Positions 26,484-59,231 of a DNA stretch of 64,000 nt are shown here, in pieces. The first letter of the stretch is position 1; each line of letters opens with the position of its first letter. Source of the stretch: a virus. Taxonomy: Duplodnaviria > Heunggongvirae > Uroviricota > Caudoviricetes. The translations under genes were made by a program, and so were the position numbers. The stretch covers positions 39,743 through 103,742 of IMG/VR virus record IMGVR_UViG_3300048850_000064; one strand, 5' to 3'. Under the pieces are notes generated by a model. It searched no databases. It was given only the letters and a program-made list of their open reading frames with translations, and was not told the DNA's origin.

Positions 26484-27359
26484 ATGGCTAATCGAGCGCC
26501 CACTCTTAAGGTCAAGCAGACCCTAACCAGCATCGTCGAGAACACACCGCTTTCGCAACCGCGCAAGGTAGCGGATATCGGCATCTCCGATGACGGCCGC
26601 GGCGTAAATAAGCTCTCGTTGAGCGGCGCCGACGCGTCCCTCTTCGAGATCCGCGGCAACGGCCTTTACCTGAAGGCGGGTGTGAAACTCGACTTCGAGA
26701 CGAACCCGTTCCTTGACGTCAAGATTGTGCTCGATGATCGTTCGATTGGGCGCGGCGCCGAGGCGACGAAATCGCTCAGGATCAGTGTTGCCGATCAGAT
26801 CGAGAAGTTCGGCACTGCCGGGAATGATAAGATGACCGGCACTTCCAAGGCCGATTATCTGGATGGTCGCGCGGGCAATGACGTGATCGACGCCGGCGCC
26901 GGGAACGACACGCTGATCGGTGGAACTGGTAATGACACCCTGATCGGCGGAGCTGGCGCCGACCGGCTCACCGGTGGGTCTGGCGACGACACCTTCGTCT
27001 TCAAGTCCATCACCGACTCGGCGAACGGCTGGTCAGGCTACGTGAATAATGTGGCCTATGGTCCTGCCTCTGGCGAAGGCTACCGCGACGTGATCACCGA
27101 TTTCGGTGGTAACGACCGTATCAGCCTTTCGGCGATCGACGCCAATACCAAGGTCGCCGGCGATCAGGTCTTCTCCTGGAAGGGGCTTGGCTCGTTCACG
27201 CGTAAACCCGGCGAGCTGATCTACAAGAAATTCGATGCCTCTGGCACGGCCAACGACAAGACGATCGTCTATGGCGATGTGAATGGCGACGGCCGCGCGG
27301 ATTTCCAGATCGAGCTGACCGGCTTAAAGACCCTCGATTCCGGCGACTTTTTCTTCTGA
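26484..27359 (+). CDS. RTX-type calcium-binding repeat protein
   Basis: Tandem GGxGxDxL nonapeptides (GTAGNDKMTG...GAGNDTLIGGTGNDTLIGGAGADRLTGGSGDD). Confidence 0.6.
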   Translation: MANRAPTLKVKQTLTSIVENTPLSQPRKVADIGISDDGRGVNKLSLSGADASLFEIRGNGLYLKAGVKLDFETNPFLDVKIVLDDRSIGRGAEATKSLRISVADQIEKFGTAGNDKMTGTSKADYLDGRAGNDVIDAGAGNDTLIGGTGNDTLIGGAGADRLTGGSGDDTFVFKSITDSANGWSGYVNNVAYGPASGEGYRDVITDFGGNDRISLSAIDANTKVAGDQVFSWKGLGSFTRKPGELIYKKFDASGTANDKTIVYGDVNGDGRADFQIELTGLKTLDSGDFFF

Positions 27360-28775: not shown

Positions 28776-28988
28776 ATGAACGATCTCACTGGTAAGCGTC
28801 GCTACCGCCTCGGCGGATTCTTCCGCCGCAAACTCATCCTGCAGGTCGAGTATCGCTGGCACTTCGACGTTTCGCACTACGGCGATCGCGCCTCCCGCAC
28901 AGCCTGGCGCGATGCAAAGGTCGAAGACCTCATGACGATTCAGGCCTGCCATACACCCTTCCCTATCGCGGAGCGAGACAACAAATGA
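28776..28988 (+). CDS. Hypothetical protein
   Basis: 70 aa. Confidence 0.4.
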   Translation: MNDLTGKRRYRLGGFFRRKLILQVEYRWHFDVSHYGDRASRTAWRDAKVEDLMTIQACHTPFPIAERDNK

Positions 28989-30403
28989 TCAACGGAAAGA
29001 CTCTGATCGACTGGGGCTTTCAGCCTGGTCCGCAGTTCAAGGCGATGATCGCCGAGGGTAACGAGCTGCGCAAGCGCGGCGTGGCCGACGACGAAATCAA
29101 GGAGCAGCTCAAGGATTATGTGCCGGCGCCGGTCGAGGAGATCTCGATGCGCACCAATAGGCTGCACTTCGGCGACTTCCTGAAGGACGGCATCAACCGG
29201 GCCAACGACGACGAGGTGATCAACTACTACGGTGTCGTCGGGCACATGGACGTGCTCATGCGCGTGCCGACGATCGTCCGTGGCGCGATCATGCCCGACG
29301 CCTGCCCTTCCGGCTCGGCGCCCGGCACGATCCCCGTAGGCGGCGTTGTGGCGACGGAGAACGCGATCCATCCGGGTTTCCACTCGGCCGACATCTGCTG
29401 CTCGATGGCGATCTCCGTCTTCAAGCGGCGCGAGGACGTCGGCCGCGTGCTCGATGCAGCGATGAAGGCGTCGCATTTCGGCGTTGGCAAGCGCACTGCG
29501 TCCGAGGTCCGACAGCACAAGGAGCTCGTCAACCTGGTCAACACCTTCGAGAACAACCCCTTCCTCAAGGGGCTCGAGGATTACGGCATTCACCACTTCA
29601 TGACCCAGGGCGACGGCAACCACTTCTTCTACGTCGGCGAGATCGAATCGACCGGTCAGTTGGCGATCGTCACGCATCACGGCTCACGCGGGCTGGGCGG
29701 CGGGCTCTACAAGCGCGGCAAGGCGGTCGCGCAGAAGCATACCGCTATCGTCGCACCGCGCGTCCCGCTCCACAACGCCTGGATCGATGCGGACACGCAG
29801 AACGGCCAGGACTACTGGTCGGCGTTGCAGACGGTGCGCCTGTGGACGAAGATGAACCACTTCGCCATCCACGACGCCGTTGCTAAGCGTATCGGCAATG
29901 CGGTCGTCGATCGCTGGTGGAACGAGCACAACTTCGTCTTCCAGAAGTCCGACGGCCTCTTCTATCACGCCAAGGGCGCGACGCCGTCCTATAGCGGCTT
30001 TGCGGCCGACGACAGCGGCGCCACGCTGATCCCGCTCAATATGGCGCAGCCGATCTTGATAACGCGCCATCGCAACAATGACGATGCCCTTGGCTTTGCT
30101 CCGCACGGCGCCGGCCGCAACCTGTCACGCACGGCACATATGAAGCGCCTGGCCGCGGAGTTCGGCGATCACCGGGGTCTTTCGCCGCGGGCGGTCGAGA
30201 CCATCATCGAACGCGAAACCAAGGGGCTCGACGTGCGCTTCTACACCGGCGTTGCCGACGTCTCGGAGCTGCCGAGCGCCTACAAGAACGCCGACCAGGT
30301 GCACAAGCAGATCGCCGGCCAGGGCCTCGCCCATGTCGCTGACCGGATCATGCCGCTCGGCTCGATCATGGCCGGCGAAATGAACTGGAATCGGAAGAGG
30401 TAG
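28985..30403 (+). CDS. rtcB: RtcB-family RNA 3'-phosphate/5'-OH ligase
   Basis: HHGSRGLG and HGAGRN metal-binding motifs; 472 aa typical size. Confidence 0.7.
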   Translation: MINGKTLIDWGFQPGPQFKAMIAEGNELRKRGVADDEIKEQLKDYVPAPVEEISMRTNRLHFGDFLKDGINRANDDEVINYYGVVGHMDVLMRVPTIVRGAIMPDACPSGSAPGTIPVGGVVATENAIHPGFHSADICCSMAISVFKRREDVGRVLDAAMKASHFGVGKRTASEVRQHKELVNLVNTFENNPFLKGLEDYGIHHFMTQGDGNHFFYVGEIESTGQLAIVTHHGSRGLGGGLYKRGKAVAQKHTAIVAPRVPLHNAWIDADTQNGQDYWSALQTVRLWTKMNHFAIHDAVAKRIGNAVVDRWWNEHNFVFQKSDGLFYHAKGATPSYSGFAADDSGATLIPLNMAQPILITRHRNNDDALGFAPHGAGRNLSRTAHMKRLAAEFGDHRGLSPRAVETIIERETKGLDVRFYTGVADVSELPSAYKNADQVHKQIAGQGLAHVADRIMPLGSIMAGEMNWNRKR

Positions 30404-31491: not shown

Positions 31492-31605
31492 ATGACAGCA
31501 CTCGCAGCAATTGGCGCGATCCTTGTGATTGCGCTGGTAATGCTCGGCGCCGACAGGGCGCTCGGGTTTTTCGACAAAAATGGCAAGAAAAGAAGGAGAT
31601 CGTAA
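31492..31605 (+). CDS. Small membrane peptide (37 aa)
   Basis: MTALAAIGAILVIALVMLGADRALGFFDKNGKKRRRS; TAGATG coupling. Confidence 0.35.
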   Translation: MTALAAIGAILVIALVMLGADRALGFFDKNGKKRRRS

Positions 31606-31606
31606 C

Positions 31607-32464
31607 TTGCAGAAATTGGTTCTTGGGGTCATCGGCGTGGCCGGACTGTTCGTCTTCCTCACGCTTTTCGGATCGTTCTACACGATCGACCAGGGCGAAC
31701 GCGGCGTCATCACGCGCAATGGCGCCGTGATTGGCTCGGCCGATCCGGGGCTGCACTTCAAGCTGCCCTTCGTCGACGCCGTGCATGAAATTTCGGTGCA
31801 GACCGCGGCCGTCGCCTTCGAAAACGAGCCGGTCTATTCCGCCGACCGTCAGTCGGCATCTGTGACCTTCTCGATCAACTATTCGGCGCTGCCGGGTGAG
31901 GTGAAGACGATCTACGCCCGCTACGGTTCACTGGAGAGCCTGGAATCGCGCGAACTTTCGCGCCAGGCCCGACAGCAGATCAAGAACGTGTTCGGCCAGT
32001 TTACCGCAGAGACGGCGATTCGCGAGCGAGGGCGGCTGAATGCCGAGGTCTACGACGCGCTCGCCAATCTCGGTGACGGGCTGATCAAGGTCGAAGGTTT
32101 GCAGATCGAGAATATCGACTTCTCCGACGCCGTCGAGACTGCCGCGGAGGATCGCGCAAAGGCCGAAATGAACGTCCAGACGAAGAAGCAGGAGCTGGAG
32201 AAGACGAAGGTCGAGGCGCAGATCACGGTGACCGAAGCCAAGGCGCGAGCCGACAGCGAAGTCGCAGCGGCCACGGCAAGAGCCGAGGCTAAGCGAATGG
32301 AAGGTGATGCCGAAGCTGCCGCTATCCGCGCGAAAGGCGATGCGCTGCGTGAGAATCCCGGTCTCGTCCAGCTCATTCAGGCAGAGCGTTGGGACGGGGT
32401 GCTGCCGACGACGATGGTGCCCGGCTCGACCGTGCCCTTCATGAACATGGCTGCGACCAACTAA
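31607..32464 (+). CDS. SPFH/band-7 (prohibitin/HflC-like) membrane protein
   Basis: N-terminal TM then SPFH-like core and long Ala/Glu-rich coiled coil; TTG 31607 after aaggag RBS (alt ATG 31580 overlaps upstream peptide). Confidence 0.55.
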   Translation: MQKLVLGVIGVAGLFVFLTLFGSFYTIDQGERGVITRNGAVIGSADPGLHFKLPFVDAVHEISVQTAAVAFENEPVYSADRQSASVTFSINYSALPGEVKTIYARYGSLESLESRELSRQARQQIKNVFGQFTAETAIRERGRLNAEVYDALANLGDGLIKVEGLQIENIDFSDAVETAAEDRAKAEMNVQTKKQELEKTKVEAQITVTEAKARADSEVAAATARAEAKRMEGDAEAAAIRAKGDALRENPGLVQLIQAERWDGVLPTTMVPGSTVPFMNMAATN

Positions 32465-39508: not shown

Positions 39509-39756
39509 GGTGCGACCAGTGCAGATTCTGGACTGCTAAGGAGAATATCGAGGATACCGATGCGCAGCTCGTCGGCGTGCGAAGGTGCACCAGGGTTCTC
39601 GAGCTCTGGCAGGCGACCGAGTGGGACGACGATTGCGAGCGCGTTCTGAAACCCGGCTTCGAGGAGCAGAAAATGTTCGTGATGGACGGATCTTGCTACG
39701 CGGCGCACCTCTACACGCGGCCGGAGTTCTTCTGTGCTCATTTCGAGGTGATCTGA
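39505..39756 (+). CDS. Cys-rich hypothetical protein
   Basis: ATGA overlap. Confidence 0.45.
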   Translation: MRCDQCRFWTAKENIEDTDAQLVGVRRCTRVLELWQATEWDDDCERVLKPGFEEQKMFVMDGSCYAAHLYTRPEFFCAHFEVI

Positions 39757-40392: not shown

Positions 40393-40800
40393 ATGAAATC
40401 GCCAAAAGAGATCGACACCATCATCGGCCGAAACCTTCGCCGGATGCGAGAGCTTCGCGGCTTGAATCAGATCGACCTCGGAAAGGCGCTCGGTATCGGC
40501 TTTGCGCAGGTTCAGAAATACGAAGCGGCACGAAGCGAGCTGACGGTCAGCAAGATCGTCATCCTCGCGGGCATCCTCGACTGCGCCATCGATGACTTCT
40601 TCGCCGGCGTCGAAGATGGTGACCGAAGCGCCAGGATTCTAGCCCGGGCGAGCATGCAAGCGGTGAGGGTTGCGACGAATTTCGACAAGATCGCCGCGGC
40701 TGACCAACGTAACGCGTTGGCGATCTTGGTCGCCCGTATGGCGAAGGAACAACCAGATATGCCGGAGCAAGTCGCCGCTCCTGAAGGTGAAAGGGTATAG
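40393..40800 (+). CDS. XRE-family HTH transcriptional regulator (Cro/CI-like)
   Basis: LRRMRELRGLNQIDLGKALGIGFAQVQKYEAA HTH_3 pattern. Confidence 0.6.
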   Translation: MKSPKEIDTIIGRNLRRMRELRGLNQIDLGKALGIGFAQVQKYEAARSELTVSKIVILAGILDCAIDDFFAGVEDGDRSARILARASMQAVRVATNFDKIAAADQRNALAILVARMAKEQPDMPEQVAAPEGERV

Positions 40801-40934: not shown

Positions 40935-41444
40935 ATGACCGAGAAGATCCTGCGCGAGGCGCTGCTTGCGGTCCAGACCTGGGCCGAACAGCGCTGCCCT
41001 TGCAAGAACGAGCAGCCGAACCCCTGCCCGCTCTGCGGCGCCGACGCCAACAAGCCGAGCGACGTCTGCCTGTCGGCGGAAAACACATTGCCGCGGCATC
41101 TGCGCGTGGCGATCAACCAGGCTCTTGCAGCTACCCGCTCATCCGCTATCGGTGAAGGGAGCCGCGTGGAGGGGCTTCCCACATCGGGAGACATCATCTC
41201 TAGAAAATTCCAAGCGTTCGATCTGTATTGCGACGAGCACCCAGAATTTACCGGTGAGTGGCAAGACCTCTCCACCGAAACGCAAGATCATTACCTTTCC
41301 GCCCTCCGCTCCCCACCAGAGCCCCGCGGATGGTTCGTCAAAGACTTCGCGGACGGCTGGATATATTTCGACAATGAGGCCGACGCGAAGCGACAGGTCG
41401 ACGCGACCGGCGCTATAATGCTTGCCGGTTACCTCCCGAGGTAA
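40935..41444 (+). CDS. Hypothetical protein
   Basis: 169 aa. Confidence 0.5.
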   Translation: MTEKILREALLAVQTWAEQRCPCKNEQPNPCPLCGADANKPSDVCLSAENTLPRHLRVAINQALAATRSSAIGEGSRVEGLPTSGDIISRKFQAFDLYCDEHPEFTGEWQDLSTETQDHYLSALRSPPEPRGWFVKDFADGWIYFDNEADAKRQVDATGAIMLAGYLPR

Positions 41445-41561
41445 CGGCCATCGGAACAAACTGGGTCTTAACGCCTTTCACGTAAAATTTGTTGAGTTCC
41501 TACTGTGAATGTGTGCATATAGCTCACATCTATTGCCCGAGACGGGCACACGGAGTTGATC

Positions 41562-41717
41562 ATGATTATGCGCCAGCGCGTCACCACGCGCACGCCCCGC
41601 CAGAAGCCGGAAGTCAAGTTCGAGGCACGCCCGAAAAAGCGGCCGACGGACTATGCTGCCGTGGCGAAGGATCTGATCAAGCGCTACCCGCAGGTGATGG
41701 CGCATCTTGCCAAATGA
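41562..41717 (+). CDS. Putative antitoxin of Doc (Phd-like role, 51 aa)
   Basis: Hand-translated MIMRQRVTTRTPRQKPEVKFEARPKKRPTDYAAVAKDLIKRYPQVMAHLAK; ggag RBS; overlaps doc start by 11 nt. Confidence 0.35.
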   Translation: MIMRQRVTTRTPRQKPEVKFEARPKKRPTDYAAVAKDLIKRYPQVMAHLAK

Positions 41718-42117
41718 GCCTATCTGGCTGCCCAGGCAAGCCGTAATAGACATCAACCGTGAAGTTGTCGAGGCGACAGGGGAGAATCACGCTCTCCTGT
41801 TTCCCGACAAGCTTGAGAGCGCCCTCGCCCGGCCCATCAACGCCTATTTCTACGAAGAGACCTATGACGTGGTCTCCCTTACGGTGAACCTCATGGTCGC
41901 GATCGGCCAGGCGCACGCCTTCGAGCAAGGCAACAAGCGCACCGCGTTCATCTCCGGCCTCGCCTTCCTCGGCGACAACGGCTACGCCTTCGTCCACCCC
42001 GACACCACCCCGTTCGCCATGGATATTGAGGCGGTCATCACCAGGGAAATGTCACCTGGCGAGTTCGAGGAATATTTCGCTCACTGGGTCGTGCCGCTTC
42101 CCGAGGACGAAGACTGA
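41707..42117 (+). CDS. doc: Doc (death-on-curing) family toxin, Fic fold
   Basis: HAFEQGNKRTAF matches Doc/Fic H-x-F-x-D/N-G-N-K-R motif; TTG start. Confidence 0.7.
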   Translation: MPNEPIWLPRQAVIDINREVVEATGENHALLFPDKLESALARPINAYFYEETYDVVSLTVNLMVAIGQAHAFEQGNKRTAFISGLAFLGDNGYAFVHPDTTPFAMDIEAVITREMSPGEFEEYFAHWVVPLPEDED

Positions 42118-42193
42118 GGCTCTTGACGGCGCCGGATCCCGCGGCATCTCATGCTGTATGGCAAAGGCGCGATCGCAGCCACCTATAGATCCC

Positions 42194-43123
42194 ATGCCGC
42201 TCCGGATCGAGCCGTGCGTTCCGCTTCTTGCCAAGGAGGCGCCACGGGGCGACCGCTGGATCCACGAAATCAAATGGGATGGTTATCGGGTGATGGTGCA
42301 TATCCAGCCCGACCGCGTCCGCATCCTTTCCCGCAACGGCAACGACTGGACGAAGCGCTTTCCCTCGATCGTCGCGGCCGCGGAGAGCCTGCGCCCTGCG
42401 ACCATGATCCTCGACGGCGAGGCCGTGGTGCTCGACGAGCAGGGCAGATCGGATTTCGGGCTGCTGCAGCACGCGCTGGGCGGCCAGGGCGGCAAACGCA
42501 ATGCCGGCGCTGCTCTCCTCTACGCCTTCGACCTGCTTTATCTGAACGGGCACGATCTGCGGCCGCGCCGGCTGCGGGATCGCCGAATAATGCTCGAGGA
42601 GGTTTTGCACGACCAGCAAGGCGCCATCCTTCTCTCCCAGGCTACCGCCGGCGATGGCCCTGCCCTCTTCGAGGCGGCCTGTGACCATGGGCTCGAGGGC
42701 ATCGTCAGCAAGGATGTAACCAAGCCCTATCACTCCGGTCGTTCAAACGACTGGCTCAAGATCAAATGCGTCCAGCGCGACAAGTTCCTGATCATCGGCT
42801 ACGAGCCATCCGCGGCGCTACCGACGGCGATCGGCCGGCTGCTCCTGGCCGCCCGGAAAGGCGACCAGCTCGTCTATGTGGGCAGCGTCGGGACGGGATG
42901 GAGCAATCGCATGTCCTTCGAGCTGAAACAGCTCCTAGACCTCATCCACGCCGATGAGAAACCGGTCGCGCATCGGCGCAAGGGTGCGATTTTCACCCAG
43001 CCGCTGCTCGTGGCCGAAATCGAATACCGCGCCTGGACCAAGGACAACAAGCTGCGCCACCCCTCATTCAAGGGCGTCGACCAGGCGACGGAAGAGGTCG
43101 AGATCTACAGCCTCGGCGAATGA
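42194..43123 (+). CDS. ATP-dependent DNA ligase (LigD/LigC ligase-domain type)
   Basis: Motif I EIKWDGYR, III LDGEAVV, IV EGIVSK, V WLKIK. Confidence 0.75.
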   Translation: MPLRIEPCVPLLAKEAPRGDRWIHEIKWDGYRVMVHIQPDRVRILSRNGNDWTKRFPSIVAAAESLRPATMILDGEAVVLDEQGRSDFGLLQHALGGQGGKRNAGAALLYAFDLLYLNGHDLRPRRLRDRRIMLEEVLHDQQGAILLSQATAGDGPALFEAACDHGLEGIVSKDVTKPYHSGRSNDWLKIKCVQRDKFLIIGYEPSAALPTAIGRLLLAARKGDQLVYVGSVGTGWSNRMSFELKQLLDLIHADEKPVAHRRKGAIFTQPLLVAEIEYRAWTKDNKLRHPSFKGVDQATEEVEIYSLGE

Positions 43124-53393: not shown

Positions 53394-53648
53394 TCAATCG
53401 TTCTTTCTGGCTTTCTCGCGCTTCCACGCCTCGAAGGCTTGCTCGAGCAGGCCTTTCAGCTTCAGGCCGTTGACCGCGGCCGTCACCTTCATTTCGTGGG
53501 CGAGCTCCGGCGATACCTTGAAATTCAGGTCGACGTATTTCTTCTCGCGGATGTTGTCGGGTGCTGCAGCCGGCTGAATGGTCGGGATTTCGCCCAAGCC
53601 CGTCGCAAAGCCGGCACGGGCGCGAGGTCTGACGGGTGCCTTGGTCAT
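53394..53648 (-). CDS. ParG-like small partition DNA-binding protein
   Basis: 84 aa immediately downstream of parA, overlapping by 4 nt. Confidence 0.45.
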   Translation of the reverse strand: MTKAPVRPRARAGFATGLGEIPTIQPAAAPDNIREKKYVDLNFKVSPELAHEMKVTAAVNGLKLKGLLEQAFEAWKREKARKND

Positions 53649-54301
53649 GCGGGTGTTGCCTCCTGGTCTTCCAGTTCATTTGCGCGGGTGACGATCTCGG
53701 TTGCGAGCGTCTCGGCGCGTTCGTTGAGCGACGGGTGATCGGTCTCGGAGACCGCGGCGCCGATACCCTGAGCGTTGTGATAGCTGGTCTTTACCGGCAG
53801 ATCCGTCTCGGCATAGCGAAAACCGGCCGCGGTGATGAAGTCCTGGGCGTTTCTGAGCGCCGGCGCCGAGCCGATCGTCTGGTTGATGACGAAGAGCAGC
53901 CGGTCGCGCTTGACGCCCTTGGCGACGAGCTCGTTGGCAAACATCACTTGCGGCCGCAGGTCGTCGACCGAGACGCCGGTCGGAATGACGTTGAGGAGCG
54001 CCACCCGGGCCGCTTCCAGCGAGGTCGTGTCGGAATCGGGCTTGCCATCGACGACGATCAGGTCGTGGCTTTCCCGGGCAAGCGCCTTGACCGAGGAGAA
54101 CGGCTCGGCCGCGATCTGCGGCTCGAGGCTGTTGACCATCCGCAGCGCCACCCAGTCGACCGAGGTTTTCTGCTTGGTGTTGAAGTCGGCGATCTTCACC
54201 GACCAGCCGGCAGACGCATAGGTCCGGGCAATGAGCCGGGCGATCGTCGATTTGCCGACGCCGCCCTTTTGCGAGAGACAGGTGATGATGAGCGCGGCCA
54301 T
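53645..54301 (-). CDS. parA: ParA-family partition ATPase
   Basis: Deviant Walker A SQKGGVGKST; ~218 aa type-Ib size. Confidence 0.7.
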   Translation of the reverse strand: MAALIITCLSQKGGVGKSTIARLIARTYASAGWSVKIADFNTKQKTSVDWVALRMVNSLEPQIAAEPFSSVKALARESHDLIVVDGKPDSDTTSLEAARVALLNVIPTGVSVDDLRPQVMFANELVAKGVKRDRLLFVINQTIGSAPALRNAQDFITAAGFRYAETDLPVKTSYHNAQGIGAAVSETDHPSLNERAETLATEIVTRANELEDQEATPA

Positions 54302-57656: not shown

Positions 57657-58394
57657 TTGTCGTATCCGAAATACGCGATAGTCGACTCAGGCGAGCTGAC
57701 CCCGCCGCCCTCCAATCCCAACATCATGACGCCCGAGAACGAGGCCAAGCTCGAGGCGTCGATCAAACGCTTCGGCTTCTTCCGCCCGGTGATCGTGCGC
57801 GAGCTGGAGGACAAGCTCGAGATCGTCGGTGGCGAGCATCGCTGGGAGATCGCCCGGCGCCACGGCATGAAGGTGCCGATCATGAATCTCGGGCCGATCT
57901 CCGACCAGGAAGCGCGCGAGATTCTCTTGGCAGACAATGCCCGTTACGGCGTCGACGACACACTGTCGCTCGCCGAATTCCTCAAGGAGATGGGGGATGT
58001 TGCCGTCGACGATCTGCAAGACTTCCTGCCCTATACTGAAACCGATCTCACTGAAATTTTCTCGTCAGTAGATATAGCGCTCGACGATCTGGATATCGCG
58101 GAAAGCTTTGAAAAAGACGAGGAAAAAGACGCCGAACCGCCGGCCGTCAAGGCACCGAAGACCCATACGATCATGCGCTTCAAGGTTGCGCTCGCCGATG
58201 CCGAGCGGCTGACCGAGGTGATCGCCAAGACCCAGAAGCATCACGGCTACACCACGGCCGACGAACTGACCAATGCCGGCGACGCGCTGGTGCACCTGGT
58301 CTTCGGCTCGACCGCCCGGATTGAGCCCGCGGAAGAGCCCGCCTTCGAGCTCGACGACATCGACGAAATCGACCTCGAGGATCTGGGCGAATGA
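57657..58394 (+). CDS. ParB-like nuclease domain protein
   Basis: IVGGEHRWEIARRHG ParB/Srx motif. Confidence 0.55.
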   Translation: MSYPKYAIVDSGELTPPPSNPNIMTPENEAKLEASIKRFGFFRPVIVRELEDKLEIVGGEHRWEIARRHGMKVPIMNLGPISDQEAREILLADNARYGVDDTLSLAEFLKEMGDVAVDDLQDFLPYTETDLTEIFSSVDIALDDLDIAESFEKDEEKDAEPPAVKAPKTHTIMRFKVALADAERLTEVIAKTQKHHGYTTADELTNAGDALVHLVFGSTARIEPAEEPAFELDDIDEIDLEDLGE

Positions 58395-58570
58395 AGCCGA
58401 AATTCGAGGAATGCACCGACTGCCGCTACTTCATCGCCCGAGGCAAGGTCGCCAATCCGGCCTGCGGCGAGTGCGGTAGCGGGCAGTTCTTCGAGGAGCG
58501 CGTTCGCGAGCGCCGGCCCTCCAATGACGAACTCATGACCATTTTTGGGAGAATGCACGATGACGACTGA
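58391..58570 (+). CDS. Zinc-ribbon small protein
   Basis: CTDCRY...CGECG. Confidence 0.4.
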   Translation: MKPKFEECTDCRYFIARGKVANPACGECGSGQFFEERVRERRPSNDELMTIFGRMHDDD

Positions 58571-59231
58571 GGCTCTGCCGGTCGAGCTGTGGGAAACCGA
58601 CCGCCTCGTTCCATACGAGAAGAACGCCAAGAAGCATCCGGAAGAGCAGATCGAGAAGCTGGCGAAAGCCATCGAGCGCTTCGGGTGGGATCAGCCGATC
58701 GTCGTCGACAAGGACGGCGTCATCATCAAGGGCCACGGCCGGCGCCTGGCTGCGCTGAAGCTTGGTCGCAAGAAGGTGCCGGTGGTCATCCGCCGCGACC
58801 TGTCGCCGGCCGAATGCGATGCGCTGCGGCTTTCCGACAACCGCGTCGTGTCGACCGACTACGACATGGATCTCGTCAATGAGGAGCTCGCCCGGTTTGC
58901 CGACGACACCGACCTGATCGGCGCCATCGGCTTCGATGCCCGCGAGCTTGAATTCGCGATCGGCGACATCGCCGCGATGGACGAGACGATCTTCGTCGAC
59001 GACATCGCCACGGCCGTCGAGGAGCAGAAGACCGAGACCGACCGCAAGGCCGGCGAGGCCGACGACATCGCCGCACCCGTCGCCGACGCCTTCGGCTTCA
59101 AGCGCGTCACCATCGCCCAGTCGCGCGAGATCCGCGGCTACATGTCGAAGATCGAGGCCACGACCGGCAAGCAGGGCGTCGATGCCCTGCTGCACTTCTT
59201 CGGCGACGCCGCTTCCGTTCTGGGGATTTAG
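58560..59231 (+). CDS. ParB-like nuclease domain protein (second copy)
   Basis: IIKGHGRRLAALKLG, DNR. Confidence 0.55.
   Translation: MTTEALPVELWETDRLVPYEKNAKKHPEEQIEKLAKAIERFGWDQPIVVDKDGVIIKGHGRRLAALKLGRKKVPVVIRRDLSPAECDALRLSDNRVVSTDYDMDLVNEELARFADDTDLIGAIGFDARELEFAIGDIAAMDETIFVDDIATAVEEQKTETDRKAGEADDIAAPVADAFGFKRVTIAQSREIRGYMSKIEATTGKQGVDALLHFFGDAASVLGI

Follow-up and report, generated by a model that had tools for sequence, protein, structure and literature searches.

Introduction

Modules of the toxin Doc carry textbook antitoxins, in which a DNA-binding domain is joined to a disordered toxin-binding tail. Here we describe a Doc locus in IMG/VR virus record IMGVR_UViG_3300048850_000064 (Caudoviricetes), of which positions 39,743 to 103,742 were analyzed, a stretch of 64,000 nucleotides referred to below as the window. 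On the plus strand of the window a doc gene (41707–42117) is overlapped at its start by a 51-codon open reading frame (ORF; 41562–41717). Sequence comparison and structure prediction indicate that the two form a genuine Doc-type toxin–antitoxin module, the new part of which is the antitoxin, from an unnamed natural family that appears to be reduced to the tail half and to be tied to the toxin by a near-invariant overlapping TTG. We consider it likely that this is a two-gene type II module with a minimal antitoxin and coupled translation, which most likely stabilizes a plasmid prophage.

The closest described system is phd-doc of phage P1. There, as here, the antitoxin gene precedes the toxin gene within a single operon, the carrier is a phage maintained as a plasmid (probably so in the present case), and both toxins have the Doc fold and the motif H-x-F-x-x-G/A-N-K-R. 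The Doc proteins of P1 and Salmonella phosphorylate elongation factor Tu (EF-Tu) and block translation (PMC9207808, PMC10440598; secondary citations). They are neutralized by residues 52–73 of Phd, a pair of helices that is kinked at residue 64; as a free peptide, this stretch is approximately equal to full-length Phd in binding and inhibiting Doc (PMC9207808), and its complex with Doc is PDB entry 3DD7, in which the peptide is chain B. A counterpart of this kinked helix of about 22 residues is predicted in the small protein of the window. The two systems differ in several other respects. Phd has 73 residues and the small protein 51, with neither a Phd/YefM domain nor detectable sequence similarity to Phd, and position 5 of the Doc motif is aspartate in P1 and glutamine here. 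Unlike in P1, the start codon of doc in the window is a TTG that lies within the antitoxin gene, such that 11 nucleotides overlap, and conditional cooperativity is unlikely to provide autoregulation.

Small, largely disordered antitoxins that lack a DNA-binding domain and serve to neutralize only are known, namely PaaA2 of paaR2-paaA2-parE2 and epsilon of omega-epsilon-zeta. In both of these systems a third gene encodes the repressor, and the toxins belong to families other than Doc; in contrast, no regulator is conserved next to the pairs of the window type in related loci. The class I Fic antitoxins VbhA and YhfG are, like the protein described here, small and encoded immediately 5′ of a Fic-fold enzyme. 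They inhibit AMPylating Fic proteins through an (S/T)xxxE(G/N) helix that blocks ATP binding, whereas the toxin here is of the Doc type, and we rejected inhibition of this kind given that (S/T)xxxE(G/N) is absent from the 51-residue sequence. A further parallel is the PanA(Phd-C)-Doc system of Corynebacterium doosanense, in which Doc is likewise neutralized by a short, transferable C-terminal helical element (NetFlax, PMC10440598). Phd-C fused to SUMO sufficed to neutralize the Corynebacterium Doc, but the element, which is carried on a Panacea domain, was insufficient alone without a stabilizing tag (PMC10440598), whereas the protein of the window would be little more than the element itself.

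The Doc Toxin

The ORF at 41707–42117 encodes 136 amino acids, and the TTG at 41707 is its sole in-frame start codon after the preceding stop. The product had been assigned to the Doc/Fic fold in a preliminary description of this DNA, and the assignment is borne out by profiles and predicted structure. The protein scores 44.7 bits against Pfam Fic (PF02661; curated cut-off 24) and 60.3 bits against NCBIfam TIGR01550 DOC_P1 "death-on-curing family toxin" (cut-off 38.65), and it matches phrog_577 "Doc-like toxin" (3.8e-22). Among solved structures, P1 Doc and one other Doc were the only sequence matches. An AlphaFold2 model computed with 120 homologs has a mean predicted local distance difference test score (pLDDT) of 94.6, and its five best matches in the PDB are P1 Doc chains from the Phd-bound structures 3KH2, 3DD7, and 3K33, with template-modeling (TM) scores of 0.75–0.88 and root-mean-square deviations of 1.8–2.4 Å. 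AMPylating Fic proteins rank far lower (E ≥1e-2, as compared with approximately 1e-4 for P1 Doc). Based on these profiles and this all-alpha fold, the product is a member of the Doc (Fic-fold) family.

The catalytic motif HAFEQGNKR is encoded at 41914–41940 and comprises His70, Asn76, Lys77, and Arg78; residues 70–81 read HAFEQGNKRTAF (41914–41949). In a phmmer alignment HAFEQGNKRTA of the window is placed on HIFNDANKRTA of P1 Doc, the catalytic histidine of which is H66. Thus, both the catalytic histidine and the Doc-specific signature, in which lysine takes the place of the second glycine of the Fic motif (G-N-K-R), are present. Across the 120 homologs F72, E73, N76, K77, R78, and T79 show no variation, and conservation at H70 and Q74 is 90% or more. 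The motif had been given previously as H-x-F-x-[DE]-G-N-[GK]-R; it is indeed there, but the fifth residue is glutamine, and a glutamate occupies the fourth, "x" position. In the literature the consensus for Doc is given as HXFX(D/N)(A/G)NKR (PMC13034048).

The glutamine invites a different reading, according to which Docs of this clade would not be EF-Tu kinase toxins at all but would have another activity or target, or weak or no toxicity, with the small protein acting in a regulatory or chaperone-like manner and not as an antidote. High conservation of Gln74 in the clade against a D/N consensus is in keeping with this, as is the known variation in chemistry among Fic/Doc enzymes (PMC10440598). 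Furthermore, many members lie between a glutathione-reductase-like gene and a gene for 3-deoxy-D-arabinoheptulosonate 7-phosphate (DAHP) synthase in related metagenome-assembled genomes, which would be unusual for a purely selfish module. We nevertheless regard such a change of function as improbable, since the lysine of G-N-K-R is conserved together with the catalytic His, Asn, and Arg, and the fold is far nearer to P1 Doc than to the AMPylating Fic proteins. Glutamine is a conservative substitution for the permitted asparagine, and the alignments suggest an amide variant that is consistent across the clade. In addition, in a Mesorhizobium-type prophage on a Logan contig (SRR7077373; locus L099, 6001–7626) the small ORF is intact, and a Doc homolog of 122 residues, 52% identical to that of the window, has lost, in frame, precisely the catalytic core GNKRTAFISGL. 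A single case can give only a hint, but such a deletion is what one would expect if a harmful activity were decaying. The Doc of the window would, given its homology to P1 Doc, most likely phosphorylate EF-Tu and stop translation.

The Overlapping Junction

The small ORF starts with ATG at 41562, six nucleotides 3′ of a GGAG Shine–Dalgarno sequence (41552–41555, plus strand), and ends with TGA at 41715–41717; its product is MIMRQRVTTRTPRQKPEVKFEARPKKRPTDYAAVAKDLIKRYPQVMAHLAK. Exactly 11 nucleotides (TTGCCAAATGA, 41707–41717) are shared with doc, whose TTG lies within the Leu-Ala-Lys-stop of the small ORF. The preliminary description had already reported this 51-codon ORF with its ribosome-binding site and overlap, and all coordinates hold; it had also called the ORF unannotated, but the ORF or its homologs are recorded as "hypothetical protein" by the Joint Genome Institute and by the Prokaryotic Genome Annotation Pipeline (PGAP). 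We regard the 51-codon ORF as a genuine gene and a conserved partner of Doc because its composition is that of the local genes (GC content of 0.80 at third and 0.43 at second codon positions), it was called by gene callers in two independent datasets, and conserved homologs lie 5′ of Doc elsewhere.

The junction itself is highly conserved. In related loci, 36 of 38 distinct junctions read C-TTG-CCR-AAT-GA, such that the TTG start of doc falls within the Leu-Ala-Lys/Glu-stop of the partner, and TGA is always the stop. We infer that doc is generally translated from a weak start within the end of the partner gene, which is the layout expected of termination–reinitiation coupling, and that such coupling would keep toxin output at or below antitoxin output.

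The Small Partner Family

The 51-residue protein has no match in Pfam, NCBIfam (E up to 1), PHROGs, PADLOC, or the sequences of the PDB, and a single-sequence search recovered the protein alone. A blastn search of the module against phage records gave no match, and a tblastn search of phages with the small protein yielded noise only. When an alignment was used as the query, 243 family clusters were recovered, all unnamed and without Pfam domains, and when 1.84 billion representatives were scanned with a profile, 266 clusters, again unnamed, were retrieved at E ≤1e-3; with the family profile, the protein of the window has a score of 85 bits. In an alignment of 120 members the core reads [LF]-x-A-[RK]-P-x5-D-[YWH]-x2-L-x-[RK]-[ED]-x-I-x-R-[YF]-P-K-[IV]-x3-L-A-[KE]-stop. 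Members are recognized by x-A-[RK]-P, 5–8 residues, D-[YWH], a helix, R-[YF]-P-K, 4 residues, and L-A-[KE]-stop, a pattern that the window protein contains in full, and by a gene that lies directly 5′ of doc, its stop overlapping the doc start, as in the window.

In these 120 members the first ~19 residues vary and residues 20–51 are strongly conserved, with P24, P43, and L49 (window numbering) invariant. The conserved part opens with an F/L-x-A-[RK]-P segment (residues 20–24, encoded at 41619–41633 on the plus strand), in the column profile of which position 20 is L or F, A22 occurs in 118 of 120 sequences, position 23 is R or K, and P24 is found in all 120. The A-[RK]-P segment is also visible in divergent partners and is specific to the short antitoxin family. 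Short forms have 47–100 residues and long forms approximately 130–205, and the motif always stands at the extreme C-terminus. The N-terminal extension of the long forms (P0243–P0255 and similar) appears from sequence to be mostly helical and has no Pfam match; one long partner, of 205 residues, lies before the Doc gene in Rhizobium phage RHph_Y3_1 (L016:175–792).

These patterns bear on the notion that the 51-codon ORF is a mere leader that delivers ribosomes to the doc TTG and whose peptide has no function of its own. No nucleotides of the locus are better conserved than the overlap and TTG, conservation is poor over the N-terminal 19 residues, and the differences between the window and Sinorhizobium fall on the three codon positions as 9/8/11 and 10/9/13, that is, without a strong third-position bias. 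On the other hand, residues 20–51 are conserved as protein, the differences between Sinorhizobium meliloti and Sinorhizobium medicae are mostly at third positions (4/3/15), the same tail is found on long partners and on the DNA-binding antitoxins of related Docs, and its helices are predicted at pLDDT >90. We therefore consider a bare leader highly improbable and treat the small ORF as the gene of a functional, presumably antitoxic protein.

Two groups of database sequences are of separate note. In P0337 and P0347 the tail of the small ORF runs straight into the N-terminus of Doc (...RAALRNEPRWLP...), and these are either natural antitoxin–toxin fusions that arose through an indel in the overlap or sequencing errors. 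In P0264 (728 residues) and P0384 (3503 residues), 9 and 5 separate stretches, respectively, match the tail part of the family profile, and these may be repeats or low complexity.

The Putative Antitoxin Tail and Its Predicted Structure

AlphaFold2 predicts no secondary structure for residues 1–30 of the small protein, followed by a helix at 31–41, Pro43, and a helix at 43–50, with pLDDT of 92–93 over residues 31–50. The predicted toxin-binding element, encoded at 41649–41714 on the plus strand, thus consists of helix 31–41, a kink at Pro43, and helix 43–50 with its L-A-K end.

Antitoxins of the AbrB/MazE, Phd/YefM, or ribbon-helix-helix type precede those Docs that are more distant within the broad group; these antitoxins were recognized from their N-terminal sequences and bear the same names in PGAP annotations of plasmids. 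These systems occur in Alphaproteobacteria and other soil bacteria, and their Docs are 30–45% identical to that of the window and have FEQGNKRT in common with it. The tails of their antitoxins, for example ...ARRSFRKYADTYKALAK or ...LKRNAAVYKELAK, resemble the tail of the window protein, ...DLIKRYPQVMAHLAK, and they also end at or over the doc start; the same tail closes the long partners. Those antitoxins have a folded N-terminal DNA-binding domain, whereas the small family has instead a disordered basic stretch and the conserved A-[RK]-P. From 22 such tails, with the small family excluded, we built a scoring matrix anchored at the C-terminus. The small ORF ranks first among the 1347 ORFs of the window under this matrix, with 13.9 bits as compared with −7.7 for the runner-up. 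It still ranks first when the last four residues, which are encoded in the overlap, are left out, and 10 of 87,096 unanchored positions score as high. This C-terminus-anchored test is the only tail test that separates the small ORF, and the resemblance, as judged from sequence, is limited to the tails of antitoxins of the closer Docs.

No Phd/YefM DNA-binding fold is apparent in the small protein, to judge from Pfam and NCBIfam searches with E up to 1 and from the unstructured residues 1–30 of the AlphaFold2 model. Given the lack of a DNA-binding domain and of a conserved adjoining regulator, classical transcriptional autoregulation by the antitoxin is unlikely. The simplest reading of the model and the alignments is that the 51-residue protein is little more than a Phd-C-like neutralizing element together with a conserved A-R-P segment. 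The antitoxin–toxin arrangement that the preliminary description had proposed is supported computationally by the conserved partner, the overlapping junction, and a tail like those of established Doc antitoxins.

A more specific reading can be entertained for the A-[RK]-P segment. The family may be an undescribed, mostly alphaproteobacterial class of Doc antitoxins without transcriptional autoregulation, in which a Phd-C-like kinked helix would be combined with an A-[RK]-P-(V)-x-G pseudo-substrate placed in the active site, and in which the ratio of the two proteins would be set purely by termination–reinitiation at the TTG. Speculatively, the segment would then mimic the loop G-R-T382-V-G of EF-Tu, for which the EF-Tu sequence was checked, with proline replacing the phospho-acceptor threonine. 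We think it doubtful that this full combination is correct.

Distribution of the Pair

DNA similarity led to Sinorhizobium plasmids on which a 50-residue "hypothetical protein" of PGAP overlaps a "death-on-curing family toxin" by 11 nucleotides, and the two proteins are 66–74% identical to those of the window. Looking up contigs that encode Doc homologs uncovered further pairs with a partner of 50–53 residues and an overlap of 11 nucleotides in Mesorhizobium prophages, on a Peteryoungia chromosome, and in metagenomic chromosomal loci. The Mesorhizobium copies are terminal in integrative prophages and have lysozyme and integrase genes close by. In the metagenomic chromosomal loci (L011–L014, L097, and L098) the pair has a fixed place, with a glutathione-reductase-like gene on one side and a gene for a class II DAHP synthase on the other, a synteny that is unusually stable for a toxin–antitoxin module, and a MazE/PemK pair is sometimes nearby.

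We analyzed 80 genome loci that were found with the alignment of 120 Doc sequences. Most of their Docs that score above approximately 150 bits on the clade profile have a partner detected by hidden Markov model (HMM) that ends 10 nucleotides inside doc, and several Docs for which the HMM missed a partner are preceded by divergent ones with A-[RK]-P and ...K-T-x-x-x-L-A-K. The small family adjoins Doc in every locus examined. The neighbors 5′ of the pair, on the other hand, differ in every related locus (a transposase, phage genes, a redox enzyme, or a divergent gene). A three-component system that would include the nearby HTH_3 gene was rejected, as the neighbors are not conserved.

The Carrier Phage

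The window encodes gp32-like, RecA-like, Mre11-like, and Rad50-like proteins, ribonucleotide reductase, ThyX-like enzymes, RtcB, a helicase, and a large terminase. The terminase is 64–65% identical to those of Rhizobium phages RHEph10 and RHph_N1_10 (~115 kb) and 58–62% identical to genes on circular plasmids of 115–119 kb in Shinella, Pararhizobium, and Sinorhizobium sp. LM21 (pLM21S1). A ParA-like ATPase (phrog_164; 53394–54301, minus strand) is 58–62% identical to its counterparts in the RHEph10 phage group, across which its gene is conserved, and two proteins with ParB_N domains are encoded near it on the plus strand (57657–58394 and 58545–59231). The ParA-like gene is followed by an ORF of 84 residues that hits only PHROGs of unknown function, and the label "ParG" given to it earlier was not confirmed. 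It has been proposed that pLM21S1 and RHEph10 are archetypes of plasmid-like prophages that carry modules for partition and RepC-type replication (PMC4447125).

By its sequence relationships, the carrier belongs to the RHEph10/pLM21S1 group of plasmid-like prophages, and it probably persists as a plasmid. The preliminary description had suggested a plasmid prophage, and the suggestion is supported by this relatedness, that is, by relatives of the terminase and the ParA-like protein in the RHEph10 group and relatives of the terminase on circular plasmids (PMC4447125).

The module sits in a variable region of the ~116 kb phage. Two IMG/VR contigs of 116,399 and 120,831 nucleotides (L103 and L115) share with the window the small genes that flank this region (36.6–39.9 kb and 45.5–48.0 kb), and each has in the same region a Doc that is 47–50% identical, accompanied by a short partner of the A[RK]P...LAK layout. 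The two contigs are probably sister phage-plasmids. As both also carry Doc modules in this region, such modules are recurrent cargo of the carrier lineage.

The Proposed Role of the Module

Under the explanation that we favor, Doc would arrest translation by phosphorylating EF-Tu, and the 51-residue product would be the antitoxin, with a basic, disordered N-terminal half, the A-R-P segment, and a C-terminal helix-kink-helix. To judge from the predicted structure and the similarity of the tails, the antitoxin tail may fold into the groove of Doc in the manner of the last 22 residues of P1 Phd. The antitoxin would presumably be labile, and translation of doc by coupling from the weak TTG in the last codons of the antitoxin gene would hold the toxin at or below the antitoxin. 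Post-segregational growth arrest would then stabilize the plasmid prophage, as phd-doc does for P1. By this analogy an addiction role of the module is plausible.

Several observations weigh against this explanation or parts of it. Gln74, at position 5 of the Doc motif, is neither the D nor the N of the consensus, and activity or metal binding could differ. Part of the conservation of the terminal L-A-K is forced by the overlapping doc start. Under a local HMM made from 24-residue tails of the DNA-binding Doc antitoxins, the small ORF ranked fourth, with a nonsignificant E of 3. In hhalign, the family profile matched P1 Phd with a probability of 0.1%, and the family matrix scored the Phd tail no better than 40% of random positions; the earlier remark that the small protein does not resemble Phd was thus well founded, and because of these two results we do not claim direct homology to Phd. 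No Rep domain was found among the ORFs of the window that were scanned, which covers 64 kb of a contig of ~116 kb. Finally, cultured phages of the RHEph10 group and related plasmids lack the Doc module, which is thus accessory and dispensable for their maintenance.

The last of these points leads to the possibility that the toxin–antitoxin module is real but was selected for defense of the lysogen, that is, for abortive infection, superinfection exclusion, or competition between elements, rather than for addiction. Cultured plasmid-like relatives are evidently maintained without it, and it lies in a variable cargo region beside a helix-turn-helix regulator and a LigD-like ligase that has its best matches in temperate Sinorhizobium phages. 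Close homologs occur at the ends of integrative Mesorhizobium prophages, where plasmid addiction is irrelevant, and PHROGs places Doc-like toxins in the category "moron, auxiliary metabolic gene and host takeover". However, neither protein matches any PADLOC defense model, no sensor or trigger component is evident, and in P1, the precedent for a plasmid prophage with a Doc module, the role is addiction; the fixed chromosomal sites between housekeeping genes fit neither role specifically. We judge a primary role in defense to be rather unlikely and favor stabilization of the plasmid prophage.

If the proposed explanation is true, a natural Doc inhibitor could be as small as ~30 residues, which would be relevant to work on Phd-derived peptide inhibitors, and the locus would provide a test case for toxin–antitoxin balance without autoregulation. 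Several hundred "hypothetical proteins" that adjoin Doc on rhizobial plasmids, prophages, and chromosomes could be given a name. The P1 pattern of a Doc module on a phage-plasmid would also extend to an unrelated, rhizobial lineage of phage-plasmids, at least three members of which have Doc modules in the same variable region.

Surrounding Sequence Features

Upstream of the pair, an inverted repeat at 41423–41450, with arms of 13 nucleotides that are 85% complementary and a loop of 2 nucleotides, spans the stop codon of the upstream ORF at 40935–41444. This terminator-like hairpin may make the toxin–antitoxin pair a separate transcription unit; no T-run lies 3′ of it, and a terminator scan did not flag it. 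A putative promoter, TTGAGT and CATATA separated by 18 nucleotides (41492–41521, plus strand), was read by eye and is held with low confidence. Both of its hexamer regions are kept in the plasmid loci of S. meliloti and S. medicae. A strict sigma-70 scan did not report it and returned solely GCGACA-18-TATAAT at 41390–41419. Just 5′ of the Shine–Dalgarno sequence, the leader contains a short GC hairpin (TGCCCGAGACGGGCA, 41534–41548, plus strand) that is common to the S. meliloti p_3 plasmid locus. An Rfam search of 41000–42600 found no RNA family and thus no sign of an RNA antitoxin. We rejected an antisense ORF at 41677–41997 as a gene, given that its GC pattern over the three codon positions (0.79/0.41/0.60) is a shadow of doc, and took a direct repeat of 8 nucleotides at 41590 and 41625 to be due to chance.

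The HTH_3 gene detected by the Pfam scan (40393–40800) lies two genes 5′ of the pair, and directly 3′ of doc is a gene for a LigD-type ATP-dependent DNA ligase of nonhomologous end joining (42194–43123; TIGR02779, 306 bits). The best phage matches of the ligase are in temperate Sinorhizobium and Rhizobium phages and not in the RHEph10 clade. A ligase gene also neighbors the Doc module in L099 and L115, in another order, and the L099 ligase is 32% identical to that of the window; the association may be a coincidence or a recurring cargo pairing. Farther away, the window encodes a protein with RTX-type calcium-binding repeats (HemolysinCabind, Peptidase_M10_C; 26484–27359), and among the accessory genes of the phage are those for the RNA ligase RtcB (28985–30403) and an SPFH/Band 7 protein (31580–32464).

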